A stretch of DNA of 64,000 nucleotides from Escherichia coli (GTDB lineage Bacteria; Pseudomonadota; Gammaproteobacteria; Enterobacterales; Enterobacteriaceae): NCBI RefSeq assembly GCF_024223415.1, contig NZ_CP100503.1. One strand, given 5' to 3'. The notes beneath the pieces are model-generated. The model had not been told where the DNA came from and searched no databases. It saw only the letters and a program-made list of their open reading frames with translations. The number at the start of each line of letters is the position of its first letter. Position 1 is the first letter of the stretch. The position numbers and the translations under genes were made by a program. This document shows, in pieces, positions 23,266 through 43,630 of the stretch.

Positions 23266-23487
23266 ATGGCTACTATCCCTACCCCAACTCATCCTGAATT
23301 TATCTGGCGCTTTTACTCCTGCCAAAAACGTCACTATCACTTCGTTATTGCACCAACAGAAGATGAGGCCCGCTCTCAGCTTCCTGACGCCCCATGTATT
23401 TTCTCTGCCCGTTTTTCCACTGATTCACGCAATTCTCTCAGTTACTGGTGCCTCCCTGTTAACGCTTCTGCTCAGGAGGGACTATGA
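23266..23487 (+). CDS. icd: Icd-like small protein
   Basis: 74 aa from ATG at 23266 with AAGGAGG RBS; shares EFIWRFYSCQKRHYHFVIAPTEDEARSQLPDAPCIFSARF with copies B and C; stop overlaps ant start (ATGA). Confidence 0.6.
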   Translation: MATIPTPTHPEFIWRFYSCQKRHYHFVIAPTEDEARSQLPDAPCIFSARFSTDSRNSLSYWCLPVNASAQEGL

Positions 23488-24599
23488 GAACGTCATTAGT
23501 CACCCGTGAAGAGATGATCGAGGCAATTGAACAGCACACTGCCTGTATCAGTACCAGGGATATACCGGGCGTTATTGCCAACTACTTCATGATCACCAAA
23601 CAACTTTACCGGAGAAAGGACAAGAACGCGGTTCACCGCATTCTGCTAACCGATATCCGCGAATACCTGCTCGAACAGGGTCATCTGAATTACGCAACCG
23701 TCGCAGCCGAAACACGCAAGGAGGCACACAGAATGAAAGCAACTAACGTTAAATCAGAAAAAATTCATGCAACTTCAGTTCAGGAATCAGAGCTGGTGGT
23801 TGTTCAGAATCAGTCTGATGAAATTCCCGTTCTGGAATGGCTGGGAGTGCGTGTAGTGACAACCAAGATCCTTGCTAAGGGGTATGGGACCGATGCGGAT
23901 AACATCAAGAAGAACTTTTCCCGTAATGCTGAACGTTTTTGTGAAGGCAAGCATTTCTATAAAGTTATTGGAGATGATTTGAACAATTTGCGGGTGACTT
24001 TAAGTAACTCACAAAATCCCATCTCTCCTAAAGCCCGTTCACTCATCCTCTGGACAGAACGCGGCGCTGCCCGTCACGCTAAAATGCTCGAAACCGATCA
24101 GGCATGGGCATTCTTTGAAAAACTGGAAGACAGCTACTTCCGGCAAAAAGAACAGCAACCGGTTGCAATCCCCCAAACATTACCAGAAGCCCTACGCCTG
24201 GCTGCCGAACTGGCTGAACAAAAGCAGCTTCTGGAACAGAAAGCCCACCAGCTAAATCAGCAGCTGGTGGCCGCCGCTCCTAAGGTCGATTTTGCCGACC
24301 GGGTATCAGTAGCTAAAGGGATCCTGATTGGGAATTTTGCAAAGGTTGTTGGACTTAAGCAAAACGCGCTGTTTGCCTGGTTACGGGAGAACGGCATCCT
24401 GATAGCGTCCGGTGGACGTAAAAATGTGCCGTTCCAGCAGTACATCAACGCGGGGTATTTCACGGTGAAAGAAGTGGTGCTGGATGATGAAGATGGCTAC
24501 CAGATACGGTTGACGCCTCAATTAACGGGTAAAGGCCAGCAGTGGTTGACGCGTAAACTGCTCGATGCTGGCTTGTTAAAACCGGTGGCGGCTGAATAA
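23484..24599 (+). CDS. ant: Antirepressor Ant paralog A (KilA-C C-terminal domain)
   Basis: 371 aa; translationally coupled to icd; C-terminal domain shared with KilA (43795-44595) and other Ant copies. Confidence 0.7.
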   Translation: MRTSLVTREEMIEAIEQHTACISTRDIPGVIANYFMITKQLYRRKDKNAVHRILLTDIREYLLEQGHLNYATVAAETRKEAHRMKATNVKSEKIHATSVQESELVVVQNQSDEIPVLEWLGVRVVTTKILAKGYGTDADNIKKNFSRNAERFCEGKHFYKVIGDDLNNLRVTLSNSQNPISPKARSLILWTERGAARHAKMLETDQAWAFFEKLEDSYFRQKEQQPVAIPQTLPEALRLAAELAEQKQLLEQKAHQLNQQLVAAAPKVDFADRVSVAKGILIGNFAKVVGLKQNALFAWLRENGILIASGGRKNVPFQQYINAGYFTVKEVVLDDEDGYQIRLTPQLTGKGQQWLTRKLLDAGLLKPVAAE

Positions 24600-24606
24600 T
24601 GGAAGA

Positions 24607-24636
24607 ATGCCCGGTTGATGCCGGGCATAATTTATT
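24607..24636 (+). terminator. Hairpin between convergent ant A and c1
   Basis: ATGCCCGG-TTGATG-CCGGGCAT followed by AATTTATT; same hairpin recurs at 35220. Confidence 0.55.
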
Positions 24637-25483
24637 GCGCGCTTTCGGGGTTGTCGTTTACTGGCTGCCCCTTCTTGGTTTTACGGCTGCGCGTAACTGA
24701 TGCGGCTGACTTAACCTTTTTCTCTTCGCGAGTGATGGCAATTTGTTTTTTTACATTTTCAATATCTGCCAGGCGATATATTTTTGCTTGCGGCCAGCGG
24801 TCGCAGATGATCGGTTCTATGGAGTCATAAAGGCTAAATTTTGCTTTTTCGAATTCACCGTTGATGATAATTCCATCACGGAGAGTTTCATCGCAGATAA
24901 ACACGCCACACAGTGGCACATGGTAACTCACTGATTTACCGTTATTGTAGTTAGGACTACTGGAGATGTAGTGAACGCGCAGCATTGTTTCGCTAAAGCC
25001 GTGTACGCGCATACGGAATTTTTCATCCTCCGGGTACTGCTTCATTAGCTCTTTTGTTGCTTCCAGGTTCTCTATGTATTTCGCACTGTGCTCATTGAAC
25101 CCCGCGCTTTTTTGGATGCGAATGTCCTTATCAATCAGATGAATAATGCGGCCAGCGGTCATGTTGACGCTGTTTACAGCTTCTGTCTGATAGGTCGTAA
25201 CCTTACGCACACCGCGAAGGATGTTAGGCACAGGATATAAAATAGTCTTTGGGATATTGAGGTCTGGGTACTGTTCCAGTTCCCGCGCCATTAAAGTCCA
25301 TTTATCAATTTCAGCCTGAATGCTGTCAGTTTCTTTGAACGGTAGAACGACAACCGGGCGTACAGGACGACCGTCGCTGGCTGTATCAACGTGTTGGGCG
25401 CGTGCAACAGCTTTTTTTAGAAAGAGATCCCTGAAGCTGACGAACTCCTGGTACAGTTGTTCGCCGTAGACATAATTTATCAT
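24632..25483 (-). CDS. c1: C1 primary immunity repressor
   Basis: 283 aa; matches P1 C1 as I recall it; operators cluster upstream. Confidence 0.9.
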   Translation of the reverse strand: MINYVYGEQLYQEFVSFRDLFLKKAVARAQHVDTASDGRPVRPVVVLPFKETDSIQAEIDKWTLMARELEQYPDLNIPKTILYPVPNILRGVRKVTTYQTEAVNSVNMTAGRIIHLIDKDIRIQKSAGFNEHSAKYIENLEATKELMKQYPEDEKFRMRVHGFSETMLRVHYISSSPNYNNGKSVSYHVPLCGVFICDETLRDGIIINGEFEKAKFSLYDSIEPIICDRWPQAKIYRLADIENVKKQIAITREEKKVKSAASVTRSRKTKKGQPVNDNPESAQ

Positions 25484-26456: not shown

Positions 26457-26759
26457 ATGAAGATTATTTCGGTAAAAACATTGAGGGATTTTTGGTCTGT
26501 GAATCCCGATGCAGAACAACCATTAAAGGCCTGGGTTGACGAAGTCTCCAAGGCCACCTGGAAAAGCCCGGCTGATATCAAAGCGCAGTACCGATCTGCC
26601 AGCATTCTTAAAAACAGGCGGGTTGTCTTCAACATCAAAGGTAATGACTACAGATTAATTGTTGCAATTGCTTATCAGCGAGGATGGATGTTCGTTAAGT
26701 TTATTGGAACACATAAGGAATACGATGCCATCGACGCGGATACAATAGAGCTGGAGTAA
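26457..26759 (+). CDS. higB: HigB-family type II toxin (RelE/ParE superfamily mRNA interferase)
   Basis: 100 aa; C-terminal THKEYD motif and toxin-first gene order. Confidence 0.7.
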   Translation: MKIISVKTLRDFWSVNPDAEQPLKAWVDEVSKATWKSPADIKAQYRSASILKNRRVVFNIKGNDYRLIVAIAYQRGWMFVKFIGTHKEYDAIDADTIELE

Positions 26760-26762
26760 ATC

Positions 26763-27122
26763 ATGAACATTAAACCTATCCGTACAGAACAAGATTATCA
26801 GGCCGCACTACGCGCGGTCGAACCTATGTTCGATAACGAACCGGAAATGAACACCCCGGAAGGTGATTTCTTTGAGATAATGTGCCTGCTTATTGAAGAG
26901 TATGAAAAAAGACATTACCCAATTGAACCGCCTACACCCATTGAAGCGATTAAGTTCCGTATGGAACAGCAAGGGTTGACAGTGAAAGATCTGGAACCGG
27001 CGATTGGTAAGTCGAACCGTGTTTACGAAGTTCTGAATGGAACGCGAAATTTAACGTTACCAATGATTAGGCGTTTGCACGTACAGTTTGGCATTCCTCT
27101 CGAAAGTCTGGTTGGTGTGTGA
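26763..27122 (+). CDS. higA: HigA-family antitoxin (XRE-type HTH)
   Basis: 119 aa; C-terminal HTH (GKSNRVYEVLNGTRNLTLPMIRRL) resembling E. coli HigA. Confidence 0.7.
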   Translation: MNIKPIRTEQDYQAALRAVEPMFDNEPEMNTPEGDFFEIMCLLIEEYEKRHYPIEPPTPIEAIKFRMEQQGLTVKDLEPAIGKSNRVYEVLNGTRNLTLPMIRRLHVQFGIPLESLVGV

Positions 27123-27128: not shown

Positions 27129-28181
27129 ATGTCTAATGTCCTGACCGTACACCAAAATTTGCCTGCATTACCGGTCGATGCAACGAGTGATGAGGTTCGC
27201 AAGAACCTGATGGACATGTTCAGGGATCGCCAGGCGTTTTCTGAGCATACCTGGAAAATGCTTCTGTCCGTTTGCCGGTCGTGGGCGGCATGGTGCAAGT
27301 TGAATAACCGGAAATGGTTTCCCGCAGAACCTGAAGATGTTCGCGATTATCTTCTATATCTTCAGGCGCGCGGTCTGGCAGTAAAAACTATCCAGCAACA
27401 TTTGGGCCAGCTAAACATGCTTCATCGTCGGTCCGGGCTGCCACGACCAAGTGACAGCAATGCTGTTTCACTGGTTATGCGGCGGATCCGAAAAGAAAAC
27501 GTTGATGCCGGTGAACGTGCAAAACAGGCTCTAGCGTTCGAACGCACTGATTTCGACCAGGTTCGTTCACTCATGGAAAATAGCGATCGCTGCCAGGATA
27601 TACGTAATCTGGCATTTCTGGGGATTGCTTATAACACCCTGTTACGTATAGCCGAAATTGCCAGGATCAGGGTTAAAGATATCTCACGTACTGACGGTGG
27701 GAGAATGTTAATCCATATTGGCAGAACGAAAACGCTGGTTAGCACCGCAGGTGTAGAGAAGGCACTTAGCCTGGGGGTAACTAAACTGGTTGAGCGATGG
27801 ATTTCTGTCTCTGGTGTAGCTGATGATCCGAATAACTACCTGTTTTGCCGCGTCAGAAAAAATGGTGTTGCCGCGCCATCACCCACCAGCCAGCTATCAA
27901 CTCGCGCCCTGGAAGGGATTTTTGAAGCAACTCACCGATTGATTTACGGGGCTAAGGATGACTCTGGCCAGAGGTACCTGGCCTGGTCTGGACACAGTGC
28001 CCGTGTCGGAGCCGCGCGAGATATGGCCCGCGCCGGAGTTTCAATACCGGAGATCATGCAAGCTGGTGGCTGGACCAACGTAAATATTGTCATGAACTAT
28101 ATCCGTAACCTGGATAGTGAAACAGGGGCAATGGTGCGCCTGCTGGAAGTTGACATCCTCCCCCACCTTCGCACTTCGTGA
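27129..28181 (+). CDS. cre: Cre tyrosine recombinase with altered C-terminus
   Basis: 350 aa; matches P1 Cre as I recall it up to ...MVRLLE, then VDILPHLRTS encoded by IS end instead of DGD. Confidence 0.9.
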   Translation: MSNVLTVHQNLPALPVDATSDEVRKNLMDMFRDRQAFSEHTWKMLLSVCRSWAAWCKLNNRKWFPAEPEDVRDYLLYLQARGLAVKTIQQHLGQLNMLHRRSGLPRPSDSNAVSLVMRRIRKENVDAGERAKQALAFERTDFDQVRSLMENSDRCQDIRNLAFLGIAYNTLLRIAEIARIRVKDISRTDGGRMLIHIGRTKTLVSTAGVEKALSLGVTKLVERWISVSGVADDPNNYLFCRVRKNGVAAPSPTSQLSTRALEGIFEATHRLIYGAKDDSGQRYLAWSGHSARVGAARDMARAGVSIPEIMQAGGWTNVNIVMNYIRNLDSETGAMVRLLEVDILPHLRTS

Positions 28182-28200
28182 CTCAGGAGGGGGATTCCCA

Positions 28201-29433
28201 TTAGTGGGTGACGGCTGATTGCTCAGCGTCTGGTTCCTGCTTCAACGGGCGGTCTGACTGCACCGTCCCTCCACAGGCAAGTACGGCGTGCCCCGCCGCT
28301 AAAATGTTGCGAGCGCCGTTTACATCGGCGTTCGCTGTATATCCACAAGCCCGACACACGAATTTACTTTGTGTCAGGCGGTTTTCTTTCGCTGTATGAC
28401 CACAGCACGCGCAACGCTGGCTTGTGTACGCTGGCGGAACAGCAAGCACCTGACCACCACGCCAGAGCTGCTTGTACTCAAGCTGGCGGCGCATTTCATA
28501 CCAGCCCTGATCCAGTATCGAACGGTTTAAACCTGATTTTGCCCGGACATTGCGCCCCGGCTGGCTGACCGTACCCGCTGCTGACTTTGACATGTTGCTG
28601 ACCTTCAAATCCTCAATGACTATCATTGCGTGGTTTTTGCTGACGGTCGTTGTGACTTTGTGAAGGTAGTCCCTGCGGATATTTGCAATACGGGAATGCA
28701 GTTGCTGTATTTTGCGTTTCTGCTTCTGCCAGTTGTTGCTGAATTTGACCCTGCGGCTTAACTGTCGCTGAAGTCTCGCCAGCTTCTTCTGGTTTTTCTG
28801 AAAACTGTTTACAGGTTCAAAGACTGTGCCATCTGACAGCGTGGCGAGTTTAGCCACGCCAGCATCCAGACCGACTATCGTTGTGCTTGTGTGATTTGGT
28901 TCTGCCGTTTCAATTTCAACCTGAAACGAGATATACCACTGTCCCGCTAACTGACTGATTGTCGCATTTTTGATTTTACCGTTCACACGTTGAGATTGCC
29001 GGAATTTTACCCACCCAAGACCTGACGGTAGCTTCACTCTGCGATTTTCAAGGCAGCAATATTTCTCAAAGTTCACAAAACGGATTGAGTCTCTGCCCTC
29101 ATTTTTTCGTTTCCATACCGGAGCCTTAGCTGCGAGCTTTTTATCAAAACAACGTTTCCATGCGGTATGCAGGTCTTTCAGCTTTTGTTGCAGATTGTCG
29201 GTATAAGCATCCTGTAAGAAGATATATTCCGGCATTTTTTTCCACACTGTAATCATCCGGTTCAACTCGAAAGCCGAAGGTAACTTTTCGCCTGAGCCAA
29301 GTACGCGCTTTGTCTCCGCAAGACCTAAATTCCAGACAAAACGGGCGCAACCACATAACTGCCGCAAACGCTGCGACTGTTCATGCGTTGGTTCCAGTCT
29401 GAATTTGTAGGCTTTCAGGATTAGCATCATCAT
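28201..29433 (-). CDS. tnpB: TnpB (OrfB-family RNA-guided nuclease-like protein)
   Basis: 410 aa; C-terminal RuvC-like and zinc-finger region ([13 protein letters not shown]...[18 protein letters not shown]). Confidence 0.85.
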
Positions 29434-29485
29434 TCAGTGTGTAGTAGATTTTCTTGCAATATTACTGTTTTTACGGCCAACCTCA

Positions 29486-29890
29486 ATGCAAAAATACAAA
29501 ATCAATCGTTCAAGACATGCTGCCTTCCTTTTGCATGTTCATCTTGTCTTTGTAACAAAATACCGTCGAAAGATACTGGGAGAGTTACACTGTGCAGCAT
29601 TCCATCAGTATGCAGCAGAAGTCTGCCGTGACTTTGGGGCAGAACTTAAAGAAAGTAACGGAGATGTCGATCATGTCCACATGCTGATCGAATACCCACC
29701 AACAGTGCAGCTTTCGGTACTGGTTAACTCACTGAAAGCAGTGACATCCCGCCGTCTGCGAAACGAATTTCTTGATTTGCGGGGGGCATACGGAAAAGCC
29801 GTGCTCTGGTCGAGGTCATACTTTGCTGGCTCCTGCGGAGGTGCGCCGCTGGAAGTTGTGAAGCAATATATTCAACATCAGCGAGGCTGA
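29486..29890 (+). CDS. tnpA: IS200-type Y1 (HUH) transposase TnpA
   Basis: 134 aa; HVHLVF, HuH motif DHVHMLI, catalytic Tyr region WSRSYFAGS. Confidence 0.85.
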   Translation: MQKYKINRSRHAAFLLHVHLVFVTKYRRKILGELHCAAFHQYAAEVCRDFGAELKESNGDVDHVHMLIEYPPTVQLSVLVNSLKAVTSRRLRNEFLDLRGAYGKAVLWSRSYFAGSCGGAPLEVVKQYIQHQRG

Positions 29891-29995
29891 GCACCCTTCG
29901 GGCTTTTCAAGCCCGTCCAAATTCCCCTGCCGCCTTATGTCGGCGGGAGTACCCTTTGGAAGTTAAGATGGCGATTAGCCATTAACGCGTAAATG

Positions 29996-30578: not shown

Positions 30579-30580
30579 AA

Positions 30581-31645
30581 TCATTCAGCCGCCACAGGTT
30601 TTAACAAGCCAGCATCGAGCAGTTTACGCGTCAACCACTGCTGGCCTTTCCCCGTTAATTGGGGCGTCAGCCGTATCTGGTAGCCCTCTTCATCATCCAG
30701 CACCACTTCTTTCACTGTGAAATATCCGGCGTTTATGTACTGCTGGAACGGTACATTTTTACGTCCACCGGACGCTATCAGGATGCCGTTCTCCCGTAAC
30801 CAGGCAAACAGCGCGTTTTGCTTAAGTCCAACAACCTTTGCAAAATTCCCAATCAGGATTCCATTAGCCACTGATACCCGGTCGGCAAAATCGACTTTAG
30901 GAGCGGCGGCCACCAGCTGCTGATTTAGCTGGTGGGCTTTCTGTTCCAGAAGTTGCTTTTGTTCAGCCAACTCGGCAGCCAGGCGGAGGGCTTCGGGGAG
31001 TGTCTGGGGGATCGCTGGAGAAGCAGCGCTAACCTGCTGCAACTCCTCCAGCTTGTCGATCAACGAACGGCGGACCGCTTTTGACTCGCGCGCGGCAACT
31101 CGCAGGGCTTGTTTGTAGGTCATGGTTATGACCTCAAAAGAGCGCCCAGCCCTTGTGCCATGGGATTTTACGAAAGTTTCGTAAAATTCCCCATCAAGTT
31201 CATCCTTAATTCTATTGAGAAAATCGTTATTGCGGATCTCATTTTCCCCACATAGCTTGCGCGCCTCATTGACCATCTTTAACAGTGTCTGGCTGTCGAT
31301 TGTGTCGCCCGTACTGGGGATAACATCCATGGCTGGTAGTGGTGTGGATTCTATCAAAGGCTTTGTAACGACAACATCTGGTTTGCTTGCTTTCATTCTG
31401 TGTGCCTCCTTGCGTGCTTCGGCGGTTACGGTTGCATAATCAAGACGACCCTGTTCGAGCAGGTATTCACGGATATCAGTTAGCAGAATGCGGTGAACCG
31501 CGTTCTTGTCCTTTCTCCGGTAAAGTTGTTTGGTGATCATGAAGTAGTTGGCTATAACACCAGGAATGTCCCTGGCGCTGATACAGATTGTGTGCTGTTC
31601 AATAGCCTCGATCATTTCTTCACGGGTAACTAATGACGTTCTCAT
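30581..31645 (-). CDS. ant: Antirepressor Ant paralog B (KilA-C C-terminal domain)
   Basis: 354 aa; N- and C-terminal regions near-identical to Ant A/C, central region resembles Ant D. Confidence 0.7.
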   Translation of the reverse strand: MRTSLVTREEMIEAIEQHTICISARDIPGVIANYFMITKQLYRRKDKNAVHRILLTDIREYLLEQGRLDYATVTAEARKEAHRMKASKPDVVVTKPLIESTPLPAMDVIPSTGDTIDSQTLLKMVNEARKLCGENEIRNNDFLNRIKDELDGEFYETFVKSHGTRAGRSFEVITMTYKQALRVAARESKAVRRSLIDKLEELQQVSAASPAIPQTLPEALRLAAELAEQKQLLEQKAHQLNQQLVAAAPKVDFADRVSVANGILIGNFAKVVGLKQNALFAWLRENGILIASGGRKNVPFQQYINAGYFTVKEVVLDDEEGYQIRLTPQLTGKGQQWLTRKLLDAGLLKPVAAE

Positions 31646-31863
31646 AGCCCCTCCTGAGCAGAAGCGTTAACAGGGAGGCACCAGTAACTGAGAGAGTTGC
31701 GCGAGTCAGTAGAAAAGCGTGCAGAGAAAATGCAGGGAGCGTCAGGAAGCTGAGAACGGGCCTCATCTTCTGTTGGTGCAATGACGAAGTGATAGTGACG
31801 TTTTTGACAAGAATAGAAGCGCCAGATAAATTCCGGGCGTGCGCAAGGATTGGCATTAACCAT
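31642..31863 (-). CDS. icd: Icd-like small protein
   Basis: 73 aa; identical to Icd copy C; overlaps ant B start. Confidence 0.6.
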   Translation of the reverse strand: MVNANPCARPEFIWRFYSCQKRHYHFVIAPTEDEARSQLPDAPCIFSARFSTDSRNSLSYWCLPVNASAQEGL

Positions 31864-32023
31864 AGTTACGGCCTCACAAGTTGAATTAACAACCTGCTAC
31901 CCGCTGTCAAACAGGTGGCAGGACGTGACAGGGTTGACAGACTGGCACTTGTGAAACCAGCAGGCCGAAGCCTCCCCATCACGCCCCACCATAATTCGGG
32001 CGTAACGCGGTTTTACGGACACA

Positions 32024-32170
32024 AAAATACCGCAATAACGGAGTGATGCGGTTGTCCGCACAAGTATTCAGGCTGTCAAACCCGGTCGCAGAATTTGCTA
32101 CGACGCAGGAACTATAAGCCTGAACGACGGGAAGATCAATAGTCTGGCGTCCAATAGTAGTTTATTTGTT
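32024..32170 (-). ncRNA. c4: Putative c4-like antisense RNA of module B
   Basis: Colinear (no indels) with the module C leader; GGTTTGACAGCC element at 32071-32082 (rc). Confidence 0.3.
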
Positions 32171-32181
32171 CCAATAAATCA

Positions 32182-32197
32182 AATTTATTAGAGCAAT
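32182..32197 (-). promoter_or_regulatory. C1 operator of immI-like module B
   Basis: AATTTATTAGAGCAAT on plus strand. Confidence 0.6.
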
Positions 32198-33547: not shown

Positions 33548-33564
33548 ATTGCTCTAATAAATTT
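33548..33564 (+). promoter_or_regulatory. C1 operator of immI-like module C
   Basis: ATTGCTCTAATAAATTT, perfect consensus. Confidence 0.65.
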
Positions 33565-33574: not shown

Positions 33575-33721
33575 GGCAAATAAACTACCATTGCGCACTG
33601 CCCTATTGATCTCCTTACCGTTCAGGCTTATATTCATGCCGTCGTAGCAAATTCTGCGACCGGGTTTAGCAGCCTGAATACTTACGCGGACAACCGCAGA
33701 TATCCGATATTGCGGTATTTT
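33575..33721 (+). ncRNA. c4: Putative c4-like antisense RNA of module C
   Basis: Leader with GGTTTAGCAGCC (33663-33674) and hairpin ACCGCAGA-N-TGCGGT plus ATTTTC (33693-33721); complementary element CTGCTAACC at 33805-33813. Confidence 0.3.
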
Positions 33722-33881
33722 CATGTCCGTATAACCGCGTTACGCCCGAATTATGGTGGGGCGTGATGGGGAGGCTTCGGCCTGCTGGTTTCGTAAGTGC
33801 CAGTCTGCTAACCCCGTCACGTCCTGCCACCTGTTTAGCAGCGGGTCGCAGGTTGTTTTATCAACTTACGAGGCCGTAACT

Positions 33882-34103
33882 ATGGTTAATGCCAATCCTT
33901 GCGCACGCCCTGAATTTATCTGGCGCTTTTACTCCTGCCAAAAACGTCACTATCACTTCGTTATTGCACCAACAGAAGATGAGGCCCGCTCTCAGCTTCC
34001 TGACGCCCCATGTATTTTCTCTGCCCGCTTTTCCACTGATTCGCGCAACTCTCTCAGTTACTGGTGCCTCCCTGTTAACGCTTCTGCTCAGGAGGGACTA
34101 TGA
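33882..34103 (+). CDS. icd: Icd-like small protein
   Basis: 73 aa from ATG at 33882; stop overlaps ant C start. Confidence 0.6.
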   Translation: MVNANPCARPEFIWRFYSCQKRHYHFVIAPTEDEARSQLPDAPCIFSARFSTDSRNSLSYWCLPVNASAQEGL

Positions 34104-35212
34104 GAACATCGTTAGTTACCCGTGAAGAGATGATCGAGGCAATTGAACAGCACACTGCCTGTATCAGTACCAGGGATATACCGGGCGTTATTGCCAACTA
34201 CTTCATGATCACCAAACAACTTTACCGGAGAAAGGACAAAAACGCGGTTCACCGCATTCTGCTAACCGATATCCGTGAATACCTGCTCGAACAGGGTCAT
34301 CTGAATTACGCAACCGTCGCAGCCGAAGCACGCAAGGAGGCACACAGAATGAAAGCAACTAACGTTAAATCAGAAAAAATTTATGCACCTTCAGTTCAGG
34401 AATCGGAACTGGTGGTTGTTCAGAATCAGCCGGATGAAATTCCCGTTCTGGAATGGCAGGGAGTACGTGTCGTGACAACCGAAACTCTTGCTAGAGGGTA
34501 TGGGACCGAAACTAATAACATCAAAGTTAACTATACGCGTAATGCTGATCGCTTTGAGGAAGGTAAACATTACTTTCTACTAACTGGTTCAAAATTAAAA
34601 GAATTGAAGGACAAGGTTACTCAAAGTAACTTAGTCGCACCGCGAGCAAAGCACCTCACTCTCTGGACGGAACGCGGCGCAGCCCGCCACGCTAAAATGC
34701 TCGAAACCGATCAGGCATGGGCATTCTTTGAAAAACTGGAAGACAGCTACTTCCGACAAAAAGAACAGCAACCGATCGCAATCCCCCAGACGCTTCCTGA
34801 AGCTCTGCGCCTGGCTGCCGAACTGGCTGAACAAAAGCAACTTCTGGAACAGAAAGCCCACCAGCTAAATCAGCAGCTGGTGGCCGCAGCCCCTAAAGTC
34901 GAGTTTGCCGACCGGGTATCAGTGGCCAAGGGGATCCTGATTGGGAATTTTGCAAAGGTTGTTGGACTTAAGCAAAACGCGCTGTTTGCCTGGTTACGGG
35001 AGAACGGCATCCTGATAGCGTCCGGTGGACGTAAAAATGTGCCGTTCCAGCAATACATCAACGCCGGGTATTTCACGGTGAAAGAAGTGGTGCTGGATGA
35101 TGAAGATGGCTACCAGATACGGTTGACGCCCCAGCTAACTGGGAAAGGCCAGCAGTGGTTGACGCGTAAACTGCTCGATGCTGGCTTGTTAAAACCGGTG
35201 GCGGCTGAATAA
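34100..35212 (+). CDS. ant: Antirepressor Ant paralog C (KilA-C C-terminal domain)
   Basis: 370 aa; closest to Ant A throughout. Confidence 0.7.
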   Translation: MRTSLVTREEMIEAIEQHTACISTRDIPGVIANYFMITKQLYRRKDKNAVHRILLTDIREYLLEQGHLNYATVAAEARKEAHRMKATNVKSEKIYAPSVQESELVVVQNQPDEIPVLEWQGVRVVTTETLARGYGTETNNIKVNYTRNADRFEEGKHYFLLTGSKLKELKDKVTQSNLVAPRAKHLTLWTERGAARHAKMLETDQAWAFFEKLEDSYFRQKEQQPIAIPQTLPEALRLAAELAEQKQLLEQKAHQLNQQLVAAAPKVEFADRVSVAKGILIGNFAKVVGLKQNALFAWLRENGILIASGGRKNVPFQQYINAGYFTVKEVVLDDEDGYQIRLTPQLTGKGQQWLTRKLLDAGLLKPVAAE

Positions 35213-35973: not shown

Positions 35974-38900
35974 TTATGCGTATTGTTGGATGACGGCCAG
36001 AACGTCCGCCACGTTGTGTTTTGTCTCGATAATCCACCAGTTACCCGGGAAATCGCTGTTCTTCGCCTTCGCTGGCAGCCAGCGAGCGCCGAATTTCGCC
36101 TTGATTGCGTCTTTCGCACGGAAAAGAACCCCTTTCATGCCTGAGGCTTCCTGAAGCCCAAATACCTCGCCAGCGGCGAATTTTGGTGCGTACATCATCT
36201 TCAGGTCGGCGGTGGATACGCGATAATTCAGGCCAAGAGACTGAGCTATGCTGGTGGCATCACCCTGTATTGATGATAACTCTTCTTGTTTCTCGTTTCT
36301 GGCGGCAATCTCTTCCTCCGTGATGTTGCCAAGGGCCAGGTTTATCCGATCAGCGTCGGCCTGTTTCTCTTCATCGGTGCGCCCGGCAAGAACCGTGTTA
36401 ATTCTCTGCAATATCTCCACATGATTCTTGCGCATGCTGAGCAATTCCGGCGTAACCTCGTTAAGATCCACCAGCCCAAGGATGGCAAGGTCGGAAAACA
36501 TTGATACCAGGTTGTAGGTCATGCGATAGCTGAGTTGACCATAGGCTGATGGCAACTTCACCGCATCCATTTGATAGGCATCCATAAATTTAGAGCCGTC
36601 GTTTACGACATCCGCTATTGCAGGTGTGATTTTCCCTGTGGTGGCGGCCTCCCTGATTGCTGTTACCCACGATTGAGTCAGCGCGGCGACTGCATGATTC
36701 AGATTGGCTTTCCGTTCTGCTGCGATGCGCGCGCTTGCTGCGTCCATTGCCTGCTTGATCTCGGCTTTATTGCTGTAAATGCCAATGGTGCCAAACTGTG
36801 CTGTGGTGATCTCATAATCTGACGCCCGGAACTCATTGGTACCGAAAATGGCATTGGTGACTTCAAGTTCAGAATCCCCGTTACGAGTAGCCCCCTGGCT
36901 TGTTTTTTCCGGCATTCTGGCGATCGCATCCGCTATTTTCTCCTGAATTGCTTCAGGGGATAGCGTATCTCCGTATGACGCGATTACATCGCCATAATTG
37001 GAGCCAAACAATTCAACCAGGAATGTTTCTGCCGAACGGATCTGGCGGTTATTCCCTTCCGACATCATACCAAGCACCCATTTTGCAATTGACGACTTCA
37101 GCGCGCCGTCACGGCGATCCGGGTAAACCGCATGCTTCAGTGGGTCCGTATAGGTACCAACAAAATCAATGCTATAGCCTGACTCTGTAGTCTGAACGCC
37201 GTATGAGTCAGTGATTTTGATCATGCCGCGCTGCTGGAAACGGTAGAAATCGTCACAGGAAATGATGTCGTTAATCCCGGCGATGGAGACGCCACCACTG
37301 ATTTTCTGCATAACAGCATCTTCATCGGGAGTTACATCCACCTGTTTATCCAGCGTCTTCACATCCCAGTTACCCGATTTGGTGCCTTTGAAGGTAAAGA
37401 TGATCTCCACGTCTGCGCGCTGGCTGTCGAAGTCCAGCGACTTAATGCGAACGATATCACCGGCACAATCGTAGTATTGGCCTACACGCCATGAGCGATC
37501 GCCGATAACAAGGAACTCACTCGCATGGTTAACCAGGTCAGGATCAACATCCAGAATGCCTTTATTTATTGCATCCTCCACCAGCGGGCGCAGGCGTTTG
37601 ATATCCGTCGCGGCCTTCTGAGTACGGTTCAATAATTTCTCATAGCGGGAGATGGCTTGAGAGATATTAGCCTTGCGCTGAATGGCGTTTTTCAACGACG
37701 CGCGATACTGTGCTAACAACATACGGTCTGTGTGATGGACGCTCCCCCAGCGGGCCTTCCAGTCTGCGTTATCAGCTGCTTTGGCCATTACCGCCTGTTT
37801 GAATTTAGCTACCTCGGCGGTGGTCTTTTCAAGTTCCGCTTTGCTTCGCTCTAATTCAGCGGTAAGTACCTCCACATCCTCGCCAGCTGCGTGCTGCGCC
37901 TTGATGTAGTTCTGAAGGTCGATAGTAGCCTGTTCTTTCTGGCGAGCGCGTTGCGCGGCTTTCGCCTTATCCATTTGAACCTGCATCATTGCCAGACGTT
38001 CGCCATCATCCTTAGCGGTATACATCTGCATTTCGATCATATCGTTGGCGTCGGCGTTCTCCATTTCAGACTTATCTGAGCGGAGGATATCGGAGATCCA
38101 GCCTGCTTTACGCTTCAGCGTCTTCAGTCGGTATTCATCGAAAGAACCCTTGCCGCAGTAGTAGTGAACGCGAACGCTTGCACGGTTGGAACCAACTCGG
38201 GCACCGCGACCGTTACGCTGTGCGATACTGGCTGGTGTCCATGGCAACGTCAGATGATGGATGTCAGTCGTTCCTCGATGCAGGTTGATACCCACCTCTG
38301 CCTTTTTGTTGCAGATGATGATCGGAGTCCGGCCCTCCTGGAAGTCGGCAGCAATCTTTTCCAGCCCACCCAGCGACATTTCATTTTGCTGCGCGATATA
38401 GGCGTCATACAGAGCCATTTGCTCGTTGTATTTCGCTATCTGTGCATCTGTTGGTTCATCCGGTAGCTCTTTCGGCGGTTTAACCGCTTTCAGTTTCTTA
38501 CCGGTTTTACCTGCCTCGGCAACCGTCTGAGCATTCAGGATCCCCACCTTTGAAGGTTCAAGGTTAAGAGCATTGCAGATAATGCGCTTGAGCTTCTGGT
38601 GTTGCGTTTTTTCATCGGTGAAGATGATTTGCTTACCTTCCGGGAAAAACTCCTTCAGCGTGGCGATCAGCTTCGCGTATTTCGGCGTAACGGGGTGAGT
38701 TACGGTCTGTTCGTCAATGCCAAACCTGGCCAGGCGCTTATTCACTTCCTGCTCGAACGCTTCCGGAACCTGCAACTGAATAAACTCGCCCTTATCTATC
38801 AGGGAGTATTGCGATTGCTGCGTGATCGAATCATCACTGTCGTCGTCTTCGCTGGTGGCTTGTTTAGGCAAACTGTCCGCCAGCTGCTGCACCGCATCGG

Positions 38901-40863
38901 CGTACTCCGGCAGGAAACGATAGGTGATCCTGCGATAGTACAGGTCCATGTCAGTACATACGCGGTCCATATCCCTGATTATTGAGAAGATCGGACGGGC
39001 TTTCTCGTGCTCAATCACGCCGTCTTCATTGACCGAGGTCGTTACGCCATTGTTGGCTTTGGCTGCCGCTTCCGCCTGCTGACGCAATTCTTCATACGCC
39101 GCCAGTTGTTCTTCCGTAAGTGGTGCATCCTGCTGGTGTTCGTCCAGTTCCGGGATCTCCACGGTATCCTTAACGTCTTCCGCCGTTTTAAGCGTTGTCC
39201 AGCGATGGAATATGCCGCGCAGCGCATCAAGGTTTTCAAAGCCCACCAGCGCCATTTTTTCTTCAACTTCACCGCTAATTTTCTGTACCGTTTCCAGCCT
39301 GGTCTTGCCGAAGAATTTAACGAAGTCATCAGGACCGTAGATCCCCATCTTCTGCCAGTATTCCTTCGGCAGCACATGAGAAAGCATGTTGTATGCATCG
39401 ATCGGGGTGTTAACGACTGGCGTTGCAGTCAGGAGAACCGGTCCGCGCCCACCATTCTTTTTCATCAGGTACGCGTTTTTAATTGCCATATCCCGCGCCG
39501 ATTGCGCCACCGCGCTGGTGGGCAGATAGGCCAGTTGTGACGCTTCGCGACCATTTTTATAGCTATTGCGGTAGTTGTGACCTTCGTCAGCGATCACACT
39601 ATCGAAGCCCATATCCTCAAAGTACGGATACTTCTCTGCTTTTTCGGTGCCGGTATCTGAATACTCCGACAATACCCGGCGACGCGCGGCCTCTTTGCGG
39701 TGGGAGTCGGAGTCCATTGCGCTGGCTACGCGCCCGGCGGCAACGAAGTCATAAAGCATATCCTGTGCATGCTCATCTACGGTGTCATCACGTAGCGGAA
39801 TGCGGGCGTATTGTTCTTTGGTAAACACGACTGCACGGTAATTTGAGTGCGGGATCGCGTTCATCCGCGCCGTGATAGTGGCTTCATCTGCCAGCTTAAG
39901 AGCATCGCGCATAACTGGAGTGCCATCAGTACCAAGAACAGGTTTACCGTTCTCATTGAGCACCGGCACCTGGCGAATCTGATCGCCATCCATCAGCACA
40001 TCAAGACCGACGAACAGGTAGTTACTGAATGCCTCTTCACTCAGGAACTCTTTTGCTTCGTAATACCAGTTTTCCAGCACTGATTTAGGCACTACATACG
40101 CAGTACGGGTGGAACGACCGTTCTCATAGTTGAACGCCTCAAGCGCCAGCGCGGTCGTGGTTTTACCCAGCCCGGTACCGAAGCCCAGGATGCCGCGCCC
40201 ATCTTCGGACAGTCGGCGCACCTCGCTATTCTGGTAATCAAATGGCTGTCGCTTACCGCTTAATCCCTTCAACCCAAGCGGATCGCCAGAGTGTTCATAC
40301 GGGATATTGCTATTGAACACATCGTTGTATTTGGCAACCAGCTCATCGTAGCGATCGTGCGTCTTGATCCACTTATTGAACTGGTCCTCAAGCAGTGCCA
40401 TCTGCTCGCGGTAGCCGTTCGCCGTCGCGCTATCTTTGCCACCGATACGCGCACCATTGAGATACTTTTCCAGCTGTGCCGGGAACCCGGTCGCGTTTTC
40501 ACCTGATTTACGGTCCCACTCGTAGCGGATCTCGCCTGTTTCTTTATCCTTGCGCTGGACGACACCGTATCGGTGCCCGACGAACAGACCATCACCACCG
40601 TGATAGGTGTCAGAAACCATTTCGTCGCCTTCCAGCTGCACTGACTGCACATAGCGAAGATCCGGATAGCCGTTTTCCTGCAAAAATTCCAGAATGACGG
40701 AACGGTCGAACCAACGGCTATTGAGCTTAAAGCGGATATTCTCTGCTGGCGTCTTGATGCGCTTCTCTTCGATCGCTGCCAGCTGATTAAGGACGTTGTT
40801 CTTTACCCAGTGCGCCGTAAAGCCCCGTCCTTCAGGTCGGGGATATAAGGCGCGGTTTTCCAC
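35974..40863 (-). CDS. Large SF2 helicase-domain protein, 5'-truncated by IS insertion (DarB-like anti-restriction candidate)
   Basis: 1629 codons; Walker A GFGTGLGKTT, DEGH box, TATP, QRNGRGARVGS; first 19 codons (40807-40863) are IS left-end sequence, host-derived part starts at 40806. Confidence 0.5.
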   Translation of the reverse strand: MENRALYPRPEGRGFTAHWVKNNVLNQLAAIEEKRIKTPAENIRFKLNSRWFDRSVILEFLQENGYPDLRYVQSVQLEGDEMVSDTYHGGDGLFVGHRYGVVQRKDKETGEIRYEWDRKSGENATGFPAQLEKYLNGARIGGKDSATANGYREQMALLEDQFNKWIKTHDRYDELVAKYNDVFNSNIPYEHSGDPLGLKGLSGKRQPFDYQNSEVRRLSEDGRGILGFGTGLGKTTTALALEAFNYENGRSTRTAYVVPKSVLENWYYEAKEFLSEEAFSNYLFVGLDVLMDGDQIRQVPVLNENGKPVLGTDGTPVMRDALKLADEATITARMNAIPHSNYRAVVFTKEQYARIPLRDDTVDEHAQDMLYDFVAAGRVASAMDSDSHRKEAARRRVLSEYSDTGTEKAEKYPYFEDMGFDSVIADEGHNYRNSYKNGREASQLAYLPTSAVAQSARDMAIKNAYLMKKNGGRGPVLLTATPVVNTPIDAYNMLSHVLPKEYWQKMGIYGPDDFVKFFGKTRLETVQKISGEVEEKMALVGFENLDALRGIFHRWTTLKTAEDVKDTVEIPELDEHQQDAPLTEEQLAAYEELRQQAEAAAKANNGVTTSVNEDGVIEHEKARPIFSIIRDMDRVCTDMDLYYRRITYRFLPEYADAVQQLADSLPKQATSEDDDSDDSITQQSQYSLIDKGEFIQLQVPEAFEQEVNKRLARFGIDEQTVTHPVTPKYAKLIATLKEFFPEGKQIIFTDEKTQHQKLKRIICNALNLEPSKVGILNAQTVAEAGKTGKKLKAVKPPKELPDEPTDAQIAKYNEQMALYDAYIAQQNEMSLGGLEKIAADFQEGRTPIIICNKKAEVGINLHRGTTDIHHLTLPWTPASIAQRNGRGARVGSNRASVRVHYYCGKGSFDEYRLKTLKRKAGWISDILRSDKSEMENADANDMIEMQMYTAKDDGERLAMMQVQMDKAKAAQRARQKEQATIDLQNYIKAQHAAGEDVEVLTAELERSKAELEKTTAEVAKFKQAVMAKAADNADWKARWGSVHHTDRMLLAQYRASLKNAIQRKANISQAISRYEKLLNRTQKAATDIKRLRPLVEDAINKGILDVDPDLVNHASEFLVIGDRSWRVGQYYDCAGDIVRIKSLDFDSQRADVEIIFTFKGTKSGNWDVKTLDKQVDVTPDEDAVMQKISGGVSIAGINDIISCDDFYRFQQRGMIKITDSYGVQTTESGYSIDFVGTYTDPLKHAVYPDRRDGALKSSIAKWVLGMMSEGNNRQIRSAETFLVELFGSNYGDVIASYGDTLSPEAIQEKIADAIARMPEKTSQGATRNGDSELEVTNAIFGTNEFRASDYEITTAQFGTIGIYSNKAEIKQAMDAASARIAAERKANLNHAVAALTQSWVTAIREAATTGKITPAIADVVNDGSKFMDAYQMDAVKLPSAYGQLSYRMTYNLVSMFSDLAILGLVDLNEVTPELLSMRKNHVEILQRINTVLAGRTDEEKQADADRINLALGNITEEEIAARNEKQEELSSIQGDATSIAQSLGLNYRVSTADLKMMYAPKFAAGEVFGLQEASGMKGVLFRAKDAIKAKFGARWLPAKAKNSDFPGNWWIIETKHNVADVLAVIQQYA

Positions 40864-41280
40864 CTAACCAGGTGTTTGCTGTTGTTCAATGTATTGGCGG
40901 ATGATGGATATTGGTGCGCCACCGCAGCTACTGGCAAAATAGCTGGGACTCCATAAAACGCCTTTGTAGTAATATCGGGCTGCAATATCTGGTCGATCTC
41001 GTCGCAATAATCTACTCGATACGCCCTTGAGACTGTTCACCAGGCTGGATATCGCCAATTTGGGGGGATAGTTAATTAGCAGGTGAACGTGATCTCGTTC
41101 TCCATCCATTTCAACCAGTTCAGCTTCAAAATCAGCACATACACTTGAAAAGTAAGTGCGTAGTTTTTCTATTGCGTCATGGTCAAAAATCTGACGTCGG
41201 TATTTTGCGACAAAGACCAGGTGAACGTGCATCAGGAAGACGCAGTGTCTTCCACGTCGGATATCAGTTTCTTTTTTTAT
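40864..41280 (-). pseudogene. tnpA: IS200-type transposase tnpA with start codon changed to ATA
   Basis: Copy 3 has ATG at the equivalent position (63558-63560); copy 2 has ATA at 41278-41280; ORF track only finds a TTG-initiated 178-aa extension. Confidence 0.5.
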
Positions 41281-42511
41281 GGACCAAAGTATAATTTGGC
41301 TTATGAAACGACTACAAGCTTTCAAATTCCAGTTAAGACCAAATGGACAGCAGGAGCGTGAAATGAGGCGCTTCGCGGGCGCATGTCGTTTCGTTTTCAA
41401 TCGTGCTCTGGCGCTTCAGAATGAGAATCATGAGGCCGGGAACAAATATATTTCTTATGCAAAGATGACTTCCTGGCTGGTTGAATGGAAAAATGCTACT
41501 GAAACGCAATGGCTTAAAGATTCTCCCTCACAGCCATTGCAGCAGTCACTGAAAGACCTTGAGCGAGCCTACAAAAATTTCTTTCAGAAGCGTGCCTCTT
41601 TTCCCCGCTTCAAAAAGCGGGGACAGAATGATGCATTCCGCTATCCGCAGGGCGTTAAGCTCGACCAAGGGAACGGTCGTATTTTTCTGCCAAAACTTGG
41701 CTGGATGCACTACCGGAACAGCCGTCAGGTCTCGGGGATTGTGAAAAACGTCACTGTCAGCCAGTCCTGCGGTAAGTGGTACATCAGTATTCAGACAGAA
41801 AGTGAAGTATCAACTCCGGTTCACCCTTCAGCATCAATAGTCGGTCTGGATGCAGGCGTGGCTAAACTCGCCACGCTGTCAGATGGCACAGTCTTTGAGC
41901 CTGTAAACAGTTTTCAGAAAAACCAGAAGACGCTGGCGAGACTTCAGCGACAGTTAAGCCGCAAGGTCAAATTCAGCAACAACTGGCAGAAGCAGAAATG
42001 CAAAATACAGCGACTGCATTCCCGTATCGCAAATATCCGCAGGGACTACCTTCACAAAGTCACAACGACCGTCAGCAAAAACCACGCCATGATAGTCATT
42101 GAGGATTTGAAGGTCAGTAACATGTCAAAGTCAGCAGCGGGTACGGTCAGCCAGCCGGGGCGCAATGTCCGGGCAAAATCAGGTTTAAACCGTTCGATAC
42201 TGGATCAGGGCTGGTATGAAATGCGCCGTCAGCTTGAGTACAAGCAGCTCTGGCGAGGCGGTCAGGTGCTTGCGGTTCCGCCAGCGTACACAAGCCAGCG
42301 TTGCGCGTGCTGTGGTCATACAGCGAAAGAAAACCGCCTGTCACAAAGTCAATTCAGATGCCAGGTATGTGGATATACAGCGAACGCCGATGTAAACGGC
42401 GCTCGTAACATTTTAGCGGCGGGGCACGCCGTTCTTGCCTGTGGAGGGATGGTGCAGTCAGGCCGCCCGTTGAAGCAGGAACCCACCGAAATGATTCAGG
42501 CGACAGCCTGA
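41279..42511 (+). CDS. tnpB: TnpB
   Basis: 410 aa; C-terminal 230 aa nearly identical to tnpB at 28201-29433, N-terminal half divergent. Confidence 0.85.
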
Positions 42512-42592
42512 ACGTAGCAGGAATCCACGTCCTTCAGGGCGTGGAGGATGTCAATGGAGCCTCCCCTTCTCTGCCGACGTTCAGGGGGGTTT

Positions 42593-43630
42593 ATGAAAAC
42601 ACCTCTCGTCACCCGTAATGACATAGCCGAAGCGATCGCCCTGCATACTGCCTGTATGCCGACACGGGAGATCCCCGGCGCAATTGCCAACTATTTCATG
42701 ATAACCAGACGTTTTTATACCCGAACAGATAAGGCTGTGATCAACAAGCTACTGATAGCCGAGATCAGGGATTATTTGATTGAACAAGGACGTCTACGTT
42801 ACGCAACAGTGGCAGCAGAAATGAGAAAGGAGGCACATAGAATGACCGGTAATAATTTAAATGTTGAAAAACCAGCACCTGTTGCTTCAGCTACGCCAGC
42901 ACCAGCCGTGAATATCATCCCCAACACCGGAGACACAATCGACAGCCTGACACTGTTAAAGATGGTCAATGAAGCGCGTAAGTTATGTGGGGAACCAGAG
43001 GTTCGGAACAACAAATTCATCGAAAAAATACTCGATGAGCTTGATGGTGAGCACTACACAAAAAGTGTAGTGGAAAAAATGAACAAAACATCAATGCTTG
43101 TCATAACCATGACTTTCAAACAAGCCCTGCGAGTCGCCGCGCGCGAGTCAAAAGCGGTCCGCCGTTCGCTGATCGACAAACTGGAAGAATTACAGCAGGC
43201 AAACTCACCTACCCCATCGATCCCCCAGACATTACCAGAAGCCCTACGCCTGGCTGCCGAGTTGGCAGAACAGAAAATGCAGCTGGAACAACAGCTGGTG
43301 GCCGCAGCCCCTAAAGTCGATTTTGCCGACCGGGTATCAGTGGCCAATGGAATCCTGATCGGGAACTTTGCAAAGGTCGTTGGACTTAAGCAAAACGCCC
43401 TTTTCTCATGGTTGCGCCAGAACGGCATTCTCATGGCTTTTGGTGCGCGCAAAAACGTACCGCGCCAACAGTACATCAACGCCGGGTATTTCACGGTGAA
43501 AGAAGTGGTGCTGGATGATGAAAATGGCTACCAGATACGGCTGACGCCCCAATTAACGGGTAAAGGCCAGCAGTGGTTAACTCGCAAGCTACTTGATGCT
43601 GGTTTGTTAAAACCAGTAGCAATAGGTTAA
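42593..43630 (+). CDS. ant: Antirepressor Ant paralog D at the native position upstream of kilA
   Basis: 345 aa from MKTPLVTRND; preceded by 38 bp remnant of icd 3' end (…LPFSADVQGGL*) then the IS right end. Confidence 0.7.
   Translation: MKTPLVTRNDIAEAIALHTACMPTREIPGAIANYFMITRRFYTRTDKAVINKLLIAEIRDYLIEQGRLRYATVAAEMRKEAHRMTGNNLNVEKPAPVASATPAPAVNIIPNTGDTIDSLTLLKMVNEARKLCGEPEVRNNKFIEKILDELDGEHYTKSVVEKMNKTSMLVITMTFKQALRVAARESKAVRRSLIDKLEELQQANSPTPSIPQTLPEALRLAAELAEQKMQLEQQLVAAAPKVDFADRVSVANGILIGNFAKVVGLKQNALFSWLRQNGILMAFGARKNVPRQQYINAGYFTVKEVVLDDENGYQIRLTPQLTGKGQQWLTRKLLDAGLLKPVAIG

Follow-up and report, generated by a model that had tools for sequence, protein, structure and literature searches.

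Several immI-type operons and mosaic antirepressor genes in a defective P1-family plasmid prophage of Escherichia coli

The bacteriophages P1 and P7 are heteroimmune because their pairs of C4 RNA and C4 target differ, and the regulation of the immI operon in both phages has reportedly been treated by Citron and Schuster in 1990, Biere et al. in 1992, Riedel et al. in 1993 and Heinrich et al. in 1995. Here we analysed a stretch of 64,000 nucleotides of Escherichia coli DNA (contig NZ_CP100503.1; referred to below as the window, with all positions counted from its first letter), which belongs to a defective plasmid prophage of the P1 family and in which a sequence-only reading had pointed out four Ant (antirepressor) paralogues of mosaic composition. 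In P1, the C1 protein represses the immI promoter, the C4 RNA is cut from the same transcript and pairs with the sites a2 and b2, which blocks translation of icd and hence of ant, and the complex of Ant1 and Ant2 binds and inactivates C1 (PMC8198154). Every sequence element of the P1/P7 immI operon is present in the same order three times in the window (modules A, B and C), and the fourth paralogue, AntD, is the product of the P1 gene; the repeated units are whole immI operons with C4 antisense RNAs of their own, and not genes alone. While P1 and P7 have one module each, the window thus holds three complete modules and a decapitated fourth, and the C4 loops of A, B and C form combinations found in neither P1 nor P7. 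We consider it probable that this region represents a defective P1 prophage in which three immI operons with distinct C4 RNAs are stacked next to a decapitated ant gene and, less certainly, that the stacking widens immunity.

The KilA-N, Bro-N, ORF6N and KilAC regulators of phages are known, reportedly from the work of Iyer, Koonin and Aravind in 2002, to shuffle their domains, with DNA-binding-like parts at the N-terminus joined in new ways to KilAC or to other C-terminal domains. The window follows this principle, as KilA-N, ORF6N and a P1-type centre each stand on a KilAC chassis, with the difference that here the exchange took place among paralogues of one replicon and that its breakpoints can be mapped. 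A further related locus is isrK-orf45-anrP of the Salmonella prophage Gifsy-1, in which IsrK acts as a trans activator (Hershko-Shalev et al. 2016; PMC4825925). Extra ant copies are common in P1-like plasmids and have already been noted: Venturini et al. (2019) described ant between pacB and c1 in pTZ20_1P and RCS47, icd-ant1/2 homologues in the res-mod region RD-1 of pSvP1, and insertions between c8/mat and pacB/c1 in P1-like plasmids (PMC6906374). These are the places of module A (pacB/c1) and module C (RD-1) in the window. The extra ant genes are named there in passing and without analysis, and in the searchable literature we found no treatment of C4 diversity or specificity, of the number or stacking of modules, or of the Ant mosaic. 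Overall, the locus is a variant of the known immI system, and the narrow claim of shuffled paralogues is expected biology, domain shuffling among antirepressors being long known.

Three complete immI-type operons and the canonical ant gene

Alignment of the upstream regions showed that the order of elements in A, B and C is that of the annotated P1 immI operon, namely a C1 operator-like site, promoter-like hexamers, a1 and b1, c4, a2 and b2, icd, and ant1/ant2. In all three modules b2 overlies the ribosome-binding site of icd, the stop codon of icd (73 amino acids) overlaps the start of ant1 (ATGA), and the open reading frames (ORFs), overlaps, ribosome-binding sites, operator-like sites and RNA structures are all intact. 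Operator-like sites were searched with the 17-nucleotide sequence ATTGCTCTAATAAATTT, which we take to be the consensus of the P1 C1 operator. At up to two mismatches this gave eight matches in the window, with 0.01 expected, including one before each of A, B, C and kilA (43709-43725 in the case of kilA); the sites of A to C align with the annotated P1 operator Oc4.

Module A is located on the plus strand. Its operator-like site TTTGCTCTAATAAATTG (22932-22948; two mismatches to ATTGCTCTAATAAATTT) is followed by a predicted sigma-70-like promoter (22987-23016; from a pattern match and the position relative to the annotated P1 promoter P1c4) and by an isrK-like RNA element (23023-23100; Rfam RF01394, 60.8 bits, gathering threshold 50), within which a1 (23049-23055) and b1 (23065-23072) are complementary to the C4 loops of A itself. 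The C4 antisense RNA has a P1-C4-like fold (23124-23211; Rfam RF01695, 75.9 bits, gathering threshold 45) with the loops b' at 23168-23175 (CCTTGGAC) and a' at 23182-23189 (AAGGCCAA), and the targets a2 (23216-23222) and b2 (23247-23254) form cognate duplexes of -8.3 and -8.5 kcal/mol. The icd-like gene (23266-23487, 73 amino acids) has a homologue annotated as Icd-like in pMTY1886_untypable_1 (hereafter pMTY1886), the closest plasmid. In contrast to P1 and P7, module A thus has a different C4 scaffold and an isrK-like a1/b1 element.

Module B is encoded on the minus strand, and its operator-like site (32181-32197) matches ATTGCTCTAATAAATTT exactly. A promoter-like site (32111-32139), a1 (32073-32079) and b1 (32058-32065) follow, with a match to the Rfam family c4-a1b1 (RF03163, 56.8 bits, gathering threshold 46.7), and then the C4 RNA (31911-31996; RF01695, 68.6 bits, gathering threshold 45) with b' at 31947-31954 (TCACAAGT) and a' at 31934-31940 (CTGTCAA). 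The targets are a2 (31904-31910) and b2 (31874-31881), with a cognate b'/b2 duplex of -10.8 kcal/mol, and the icd-like gene (31642-31863, 73 amino acids) matches NCBIfam NF033153 (E 2.5e-13; only the icd of B was scanned). Module C, again on the plus strand, also starts from an exact match to ATTGCTCTAATAAATTT (33548-33564). It continues with a promoter-like site (33606-33634), a1 (33666-33672) and b1 (33680-33687; RF03163, 54.6 bits), the C4 RNA (33749-33834; RF01695, 70.8 bits, gathering threshold 45) with b' at 33791-33798 (TCGTAAGT) and a' at 33805-33811 (CTGCTAA), the targets a2 (33835-33841) and b2 (33864-33871; cognate b'/b2 duplex of -10.3 kcal/mol), and the icd-like gene (33882-34103, 73 amino acids), which was taken from the ORF list and the alignment with P1 immI. 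An ORF of 105 amino acids with a lipoprotein-like signal sequence (33131-33448, minus strand) is found between mat and module C, in a segment that is absent from P1.

The fourth gene has a different history. Positions 42555-45484 of the window correspond to P1 48650-51585 at 97% DNA identity, and the order antD, kilA, repL is that of P1, which identifies AntD as the canonical P1 ant1/ant2 and A, B and C as additions. Upstream of antD only the last ~40 nucleotides of icd remain, adjoining an insertion sequence (IS) element. Between this element and antD no C1 operator-like site was found with the 17-nucleotide motif at up to two mismatches, the Rfam scan returned no C4 RNA upstream of the gene, and a pattern scan gave no plus-strand sigma-70-like site between 41200 and the antD start. 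As a consequence of an IS-associated deletion, antD is thus left without its whole regulatory half (operator, promoter, c4 and most of icd). The end of the IS element creates a GGAGG followed after six bases by an ATG (42554) in the frame of ant1, and one might speculate that AntD could be translated from read-through transcripts of tnpB. AntD is 95-100% identical to P1 Ant1 in the flanks and 85% in the centre and, by analogy, is presumed to bind and inactivate C1. Split matches and the annotation suggest that IS1 interrupts the canonical ant in three P1-like E. coli plasmids (NZ_CP062905.1, NZ_CP062860.1 and NZ_AP027471.1), so that loss or damage of this module seems to be recurrent in P1-like plasmids.

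Mosaic composition of the Ant proteins

The four ant ORFs and kilA were confirmed from the ORF list at the positions given in the sequence-only reading. AntA (ant1, 371 amino acids) is encoded at 23484-24599 on the plus strand, with the N-terminus at 23484-23732, the ant2 start at 23733, an ORF6N domain at 23832-24086 and KilAC at 24258-24563. AntB (354 amino acids) occupies 30581-31645 on the minus strand (ant2 30581-31396, P1-type centre 31034-31306, KilAC 30617-30922), AntC (370 amino acids) 34100-35212 on the plus strand (ant2 start 34349, ORF6N 34445-34699, KilAC 34871-35176), and AntD (345 amino acids) 42593-43630 on the plus strand (ant2 start 42842, P1-type centre 42932-43198, KilAC 43286-43594). 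KilA (43795-44595, plus strand) consists of KilA-N (Pfam PF04383), the same linker as in the Ants, and KilAC. A KilAC domain common to the four Ants and KilA had been claimed, and PF03374 indeed matches all five (106-112 bits, E 1e-30 to 1e-32, gathering cut-off 25.3). The division of the central regions into two types also stood: the motifs quoted for A and C and for B and D are present as written, and PF10543 (ORF6N) matches AntA (66 bits, E 4e-18) and AntC (73 bits, E 2e-20; gathering cut-off 27.8). In AntA and AntC, an ORF6N centre thus replaces the P1-type centre of P1 and P7.

For segment identities the proteins were split between EAHR and M of the conserved EAHRM and at the conserved IPQTLPEAL. 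The shared N-terminus is conserved in A, B and C and divergent in D, as had been stated, with a length of 83 rather than about 90 amino acids; identities are 93-99% among A, B and C, 60-63% between D and these three, and 95% between D and P1 Ant1. The C-terminal 136-143 amino acids behave alike (98-99% among A, B and C, 86-87% between D and A/B/C, 100% between D and P1). The centres group otherwise, with 73% identity between A and C, 62% between B and D, 85% between D and P1, 72% between B and P1 and about 20% across types. The flanks therefore unite A, B and C against D and P1 while the centres unite A and C against B, D and P1, and this conflict identifies the proteins as true mosaics. Chance is no issue for the likeness of the Ants, since their ORFs are long and highly similar.

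The boundary between N-terminus and centre coincides with the in-frame start of Ant2, Met84 after AAGGAGG, in all four genes, which is also the annotated ant2 start in P1. Ant2 is thus composed of centre, linker and KilAC, the same two-part plan as in KilA, where KilA-N takes the place of the centre. At the DNA level, sliding-window identities resolve module B into a patchwork of four pieces: promoter and c4 are P1-like (at least 90%), icd and N-terminus A/C-like (at least 90%), the centre P1-like in patches (75-90%) and the C-terminus again A/C-like (at least 90%), with switches near 31424 and 30998. A and C show no likeness before 23275, i.e. they have different regulatory regions; they are at least 90% identical through icd and the N-terminus, diverge once more at 23905-24054, in the wing half of ORF6N, and agree to at least 90% over the remainder. 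The domain shuffling proposed from the sequence is therefore upheld by the conflicting groupings, by mapped DNA breakpoints, by the occurrence of either centre at the same locus and in the same C4 class, and by a protein with both centres in tandem (see below). An Ant protein consists of an N-terminus present only in Ant1, an exchangeable central cassette of predicted winged-helix-like fold and a conserved linker/KilAC part, and cassettes as well as regulatory segments have been exchanged, presumably via recombination in conserved flanks. We infer that these flanks of ~450 nucleotides provide the substrate for homologous recombination or gene conversion between the paralogues.

The two centres had been called unrelated, which holds for their sequences but less clearly for their predicted structures. 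Alignment of the centres had been proposed as a check, and comparison of trimmed family alignments with hhalign gave a probability of 0.5% (E 0.13) and thus no homology at the sequence level, and the probability was again 0.5% with a deeper profile of the B/D type (196 segments; effective number of sequences (Neff) 3.5, compared with 2.2 in the first run; both ORF6N profiles were shallow). The B/D centres have no Pfam match, with ORF6N absent even at E values up to 10, a permissive Pfam scan found ORF6N, pRha, KilA-N or Bro-N in 0 of 22 relatives with a P1-type centre, and Pfam and NCBIfam scans produced no model for this centre, Icd being the only name returned by NCBIfam. Both types are hit by the PHROG profiles 1726 and 63 in identical profile columns; as PHROGs are built by remote clustering, these profiles may simply mix the two. 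In AlphaFold models the centre of B (predicted local distance difference test (pLDDT) 74) shows the order strand, helix, helix, strand, strand, helix, helix, and the centre of A (pLDDT 83) the same order with an extra N-terminal strand and an extra helix between the wing strands. Both models suggest a winged-helix fold with likeness to DNA-binding domains (pSK1 Par, MerR-family regulators, RFX, Mbp1 and Dachshund), and we conclude that the two centres probably represent different sequence families of one winged-helix fold class, which may share a very distant ancestor.

Each centre also has relatives of its own. The P1-type family comprises 710 cluster representatives, in which the domain is usually N-terminal in proteins of ~230-260 amino acids and combined with several different C-terminal domains, and ORF6N-type centres, many of them on chromosomal contigs, occur in large numbers among enterobacterial sequences and are often joined to a P22AR_C tail. 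In P0273, a protein of 467 amino acids from outside the window, an Ant1 N-terminus is followed by a P1-type centre (114-202), ORF6N (212-317) and then KilAC; it arose either naturally, as an intermediate of recombination, or through chimeric assembly. Separate families together with this tandem arrangement identify the two types as separate cassettes and not as alleles. The centre is the most variable part of Ant (62-85% identity within a type compared with 86-100% for the C-terminus), and the predicted wing of the P1-type centre, the hairpin of strands 2 and 3, is a small, hypervariable patch of which close relatives show five or more unrelated versions (AntD residues ~155-170, window ~43055-43105; AntB residues ~155-172). 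AntD and the canonical Ant of pMTY1886, otherwise ~93% identical, differ mainly in this patch. Such variability would fit a specificity surface.

The origin of the A/C-type cassette is suggested by Gifsy-1. In its sequence Rfam detects isrK overlapping c4-a1b1, then C4, just before anrP, an order like that of module A with isrK over a1/b1, C4, a short ORF with AUGA coupling and an ORF6N protein. AnrP differs from AntA in its size of 187 amino acids and in having neither the Ant1 N-terminus nor KilAC; its ORF6N domain is 53% identical to the AntA centre. Because of this likeness and the isrK match, A and C look like hybrids in which a P1-type frame (icd, Ant1 N-terminus and KilAC) would carry a lambdoid AnrP-type cassette, with A appearing to be hybrid also in its isrK-type regulatory region.

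C4 loop classes and their distribution

The C4 RNAs of A, B and C all fold in the architecture of P1 C4 and differ in the two single-stranded recognition elements. The loops of P1 read TTTCACTAA (b') and TCTGTCAA (a'), those of P7 TTTCACAAT and TCTGCTAA; two bases differ in each of a' and b' between the two phages, with matching targets, and differences of the same kind separate A, B and C. Module B combines b' TTTCACAAGT with an a' of the P1 type, module C b' TTTCGTAAGT with an a' of the P7 type, and module A, on its different scaffold, has b' TTACCTTGGA and a' TAAGGCCAA. In every module all four target sites (a1, b1, a2 and b2) carry complementary changes. Cognate b'/b2 duplexes have energies of -7.7 to -10.8 kcal/mol and non-cognate ones mostly of -1 to -7, the closest non-cognate pair being P7 and B (-7.0 kcal/mol). 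The match of a' and a2 was judged by in-register complementarity in place of duplex energies, which were of no use here, since the P7-type a' pairs with a cryptic GTAGCAG in the leader.

A scan of a viral contig collection with the conserved C4 scaffold and free loop positions recovered 117 modules with seven b' alleles and two a' alleles in 12 combinations. The exact cognate complement was found at b2 in 114 of 115 modules, at a2 in 115 of 115, and at b1 and a1 in 113 of 113 each, while the complement of a non-cognate allele occurred in one of 690 tests. This co-variation of loops and targets implies ongoing selection on the RNA control; it speaks strongly for selection on the pairing of RNA and target in these modules and for a number of immI types well beyond the classical two of P1 and P7. 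If the specificities are real, each C4 would repress only its own cognate icd-ant.

The A-type scaffold is monomorphic, with identical loops in 30 of 30 copies, 29 of which directly follow pacB. The parts are freely combined: the CGTAAGT/CT class occurs 13 times with a P1-type centre and an N-terminus of the P1/D lineage and four times with ORF6N and the A/B/C lineage, and one module at the pacB locus has a P1-type centre in place of ORF6N. The class of C4, the lineage of the N-terminus and the type of centre thus assort independently of one another. Avoidance of a shared C4 class within a genome was considered as well and dropped as evidence, as a' and b' taken together differ in 10 of 10 genomes (eight isolates, the window and pMTY1886), with a probability of 17% by chance.

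Searching with the 83-amino-acid N-terminus (tblastn) yielded 913 places in 576 plasmid records, 335 of which (58%) include a copy that reaches 90% identity with the A/B/C lineage. Two Ant1-type copies per record are typical, three are not rare and four are occasional. In pMTY1886, the closest plasmid, these three extra modules occupy identical loci and the IS elements are lacking; an intact canonical module of the P1 class is present in addition. The identity to module A is 94-98% in RCS47, 673R5 and JL22. The pool thus comprises at least 12 C4 loop combinations and the separate isrK-type scaffold, stacked up to four per genome.

The replicon and the possible role of multiple modules

PacB, C1, Coi, Cre, Mat, Lxc, Ulx, DarB, KilA and RepL are recognisable among the ORFs of the window, and BLAST against P1 (NC_005856) gave long collinear blocks of 95-98% identity. 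Missing from the window is P1 15301-48650 (~33 kb), a stretch with the portal, pro, lysis, darA, cin, tail-fibre, tail, sit and sim genes and with Oc4, the c4 promoters, c4 and most of icd; owing to the loss of these genes the element cannot form virions. Retained are c1 (24632-25483, minus strand, 95% DNA identity to P1 c1), the three immI modules, kilA-repL and the partition genes. The junction of the truncated darB with the last ~40 nucleotides of icd is formed by an element of the IS200/IS605 family (40799-42554; tnpA 40864-41400 on the minus and tnpB 41279-42511 on the plus strand, from ORFs and BLAST against P1). The darB gene (35974-40863) retains 1629 of 2255 codons and ends at P1 15301, the junction being located at ~40806. 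Neither the plasmid collection nor 5,426 complete E. coli genomes contained a match to the darB-IS-antD junction. An inversion between two inverted IS copies was rejected as its origin, as undoing it does not restore the P1 gene order; a simple deletion fits better.

The second element of the IS200/IS605 family (28153-29964; tnpB on the minus, tnpA on the plus strand) interrupts the last codons of cre (27129-28181) at P1 ~1459, so that the C-terminus of Cre reads ...LLEVDILPHLRTS, where the normal P1 protein presumably ends in ...LLEDGD. The two copies are in inverted orientation and share a stretch of 652 nucleotides at 96% identity in the 3' half of tnpB (28232-28883 and 41832-42483), but differ in tnpA and in the 5' half of tnpB; they are either mosaics or have recombined with each other. 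The last ~140 nucleotides of the element at the junction (42415-42554), its right end with a hairpin, resemble P1 61346-61484 in reverse orientation (79% identity). This P1 segment separates the par operator from the incA iterons, and P1 may carry the remnant of a related IS end there. A higB/higA-like toxin-antitoxin pair (26457-27122) is located between lox and cre, at the position of cra in P1, and is also found in pMTY1886. Directly after repL the Rfam scan detected a sok antitoxin RNA (45779-45953, 91 bits) within a segment (45484-46675) that stands in place of P1 rlfA/rlfB, and a hok/sok-type stability module has apparently been inserted beside the lytic replicon. Further blocks without P1 counterpart are 11480-17692 (~6 kb, in the place of pmgT-humD) and 54578-56828 (in the place of incA/repA); pMTY1886 has a RepB-family initiator and is typed IncHI1B.

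By analogy with P1, each intact module would be doubly shut in the lysogen: C1 would act on its operator, and the C4 RNA of the module itself would block translation of icd and hence expression of ant; any Ant that is made would inactivate C1. Silencing of the ant of an incoming related phage would require a matching C4 in the resident, and it would follow, with less certainty, that more C4 classes confer a broader immunity on the resident. With similar reserve, an incomer with several differently locked ant genes might have more chances that one of them escapes the C4 of the resident. Several points weigh against stacking for immunity. The replicon cannot make virions, so that an advantage as incomer does not apply to it now, and AntD may be silent or deregulated. 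The a'/a2 duplex energies discriminate poorly, random draws reproduce the within-genome C4 differences in 17% of cases, and orthogonality is not assured, given that one pair of modules in pMTY1886 has the same b' and is distinguished by a' alone.

Among the other explanations, it is possible, if doubtful, that the central cassette sets which repressor is bound and that A/C and B/D hit different repressors, for example those of co-resident lambdoid prophages on the one hand and C1 on the other hand. The high variability of the centre with its wing patch would agree with this, as would the identity of 65-82% between the ORF6N-type centre and thousands of enterobacterial ORF6N proteins, many on chromosomal contigs. 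However, A, B and C are wired to C1 operators and AntD derives from the C1-controlled P1 operon, both centres occur at the same locus and in the same C4 class as expected for interchangeable and not for specialised parts, and c1 is the sole repressor gene recognised among the ORFs examined, no systematic search of the window for others having been made.

Somewhat less likely still, the extra modules might be neutral debris of recombination, acquired from co-resident relatives at variable hot spots of P1-like plasmids (pacB/c1, c8/mat and mat/lxc) and redundant with the canonical immI. Modules B and C do stand in the places of ref and res/mod, the latter being RD-1 (PMC6906374), the replicon is deleted and ridden with IS elements, and the difference in C4 class within genomes is not statistically significant. 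Debris would hardly be expected, however, to be as intact as A, B and C are from operator to ant, to show selection through target/loop co-variation across 117 modules, or to be represented by an A/B/C-lineage copy in 58% of the relevant plasmids. We regard it as improbable that the winged-helix centres bind DNA and that the paralogues are transcription factors with different DNA targets, instead of or besides being antirepressors, although both centres are predicted to match DNA-binding domains and KilA carries KilA-N on the same KilAC chassis. Finally, that the two centres are highly diverged alleles of one domain without any shuffling, as their common fold class and order of secondary structures, a short local match in the last helices and the two shared PHROGs might suggest, is effectively refuted by the tandem protein P0273 and the sharp DNA breakpoints, in line with the hhalign result even for the deeper profile, with flanks of 93-99% identity around centres of ~20%, and with the large family and other partner domains of each centre.

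Beyond the stacking of C4-distinct operons for the immunity of one prophage, the immI modules might, as a more tentative extension, form a combinatorial RNA-coded system of self and non-self recognition, in which each c4 would widen immunity, each ant would offer an incomer another way through, and the cassette, of which one type is common to lambdoid AnrP antirepressors, might even allow some Ants to hit the repressors of unrelated prophages. Resistance genes of Enterobacteriaceae are often found on P1-like phage-plasmids, whose immunity systems decide which of them coexist, exclude or induce one another. The textbook picture of immI rests on the two alleles of P1 and P7, whereas here many alleles and frequent stacking are found, and free recombination is indicated between the RNA lock, the Ant N-terminus and the central cassette. 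The centre of the classical P1 antirepressor itself represents an undescribed domain family. If the specificities are real, heteroimmunity among these plasmids would become predictable from their sequences, and the modules would constitute a set of natural orthogonal antisense switches.

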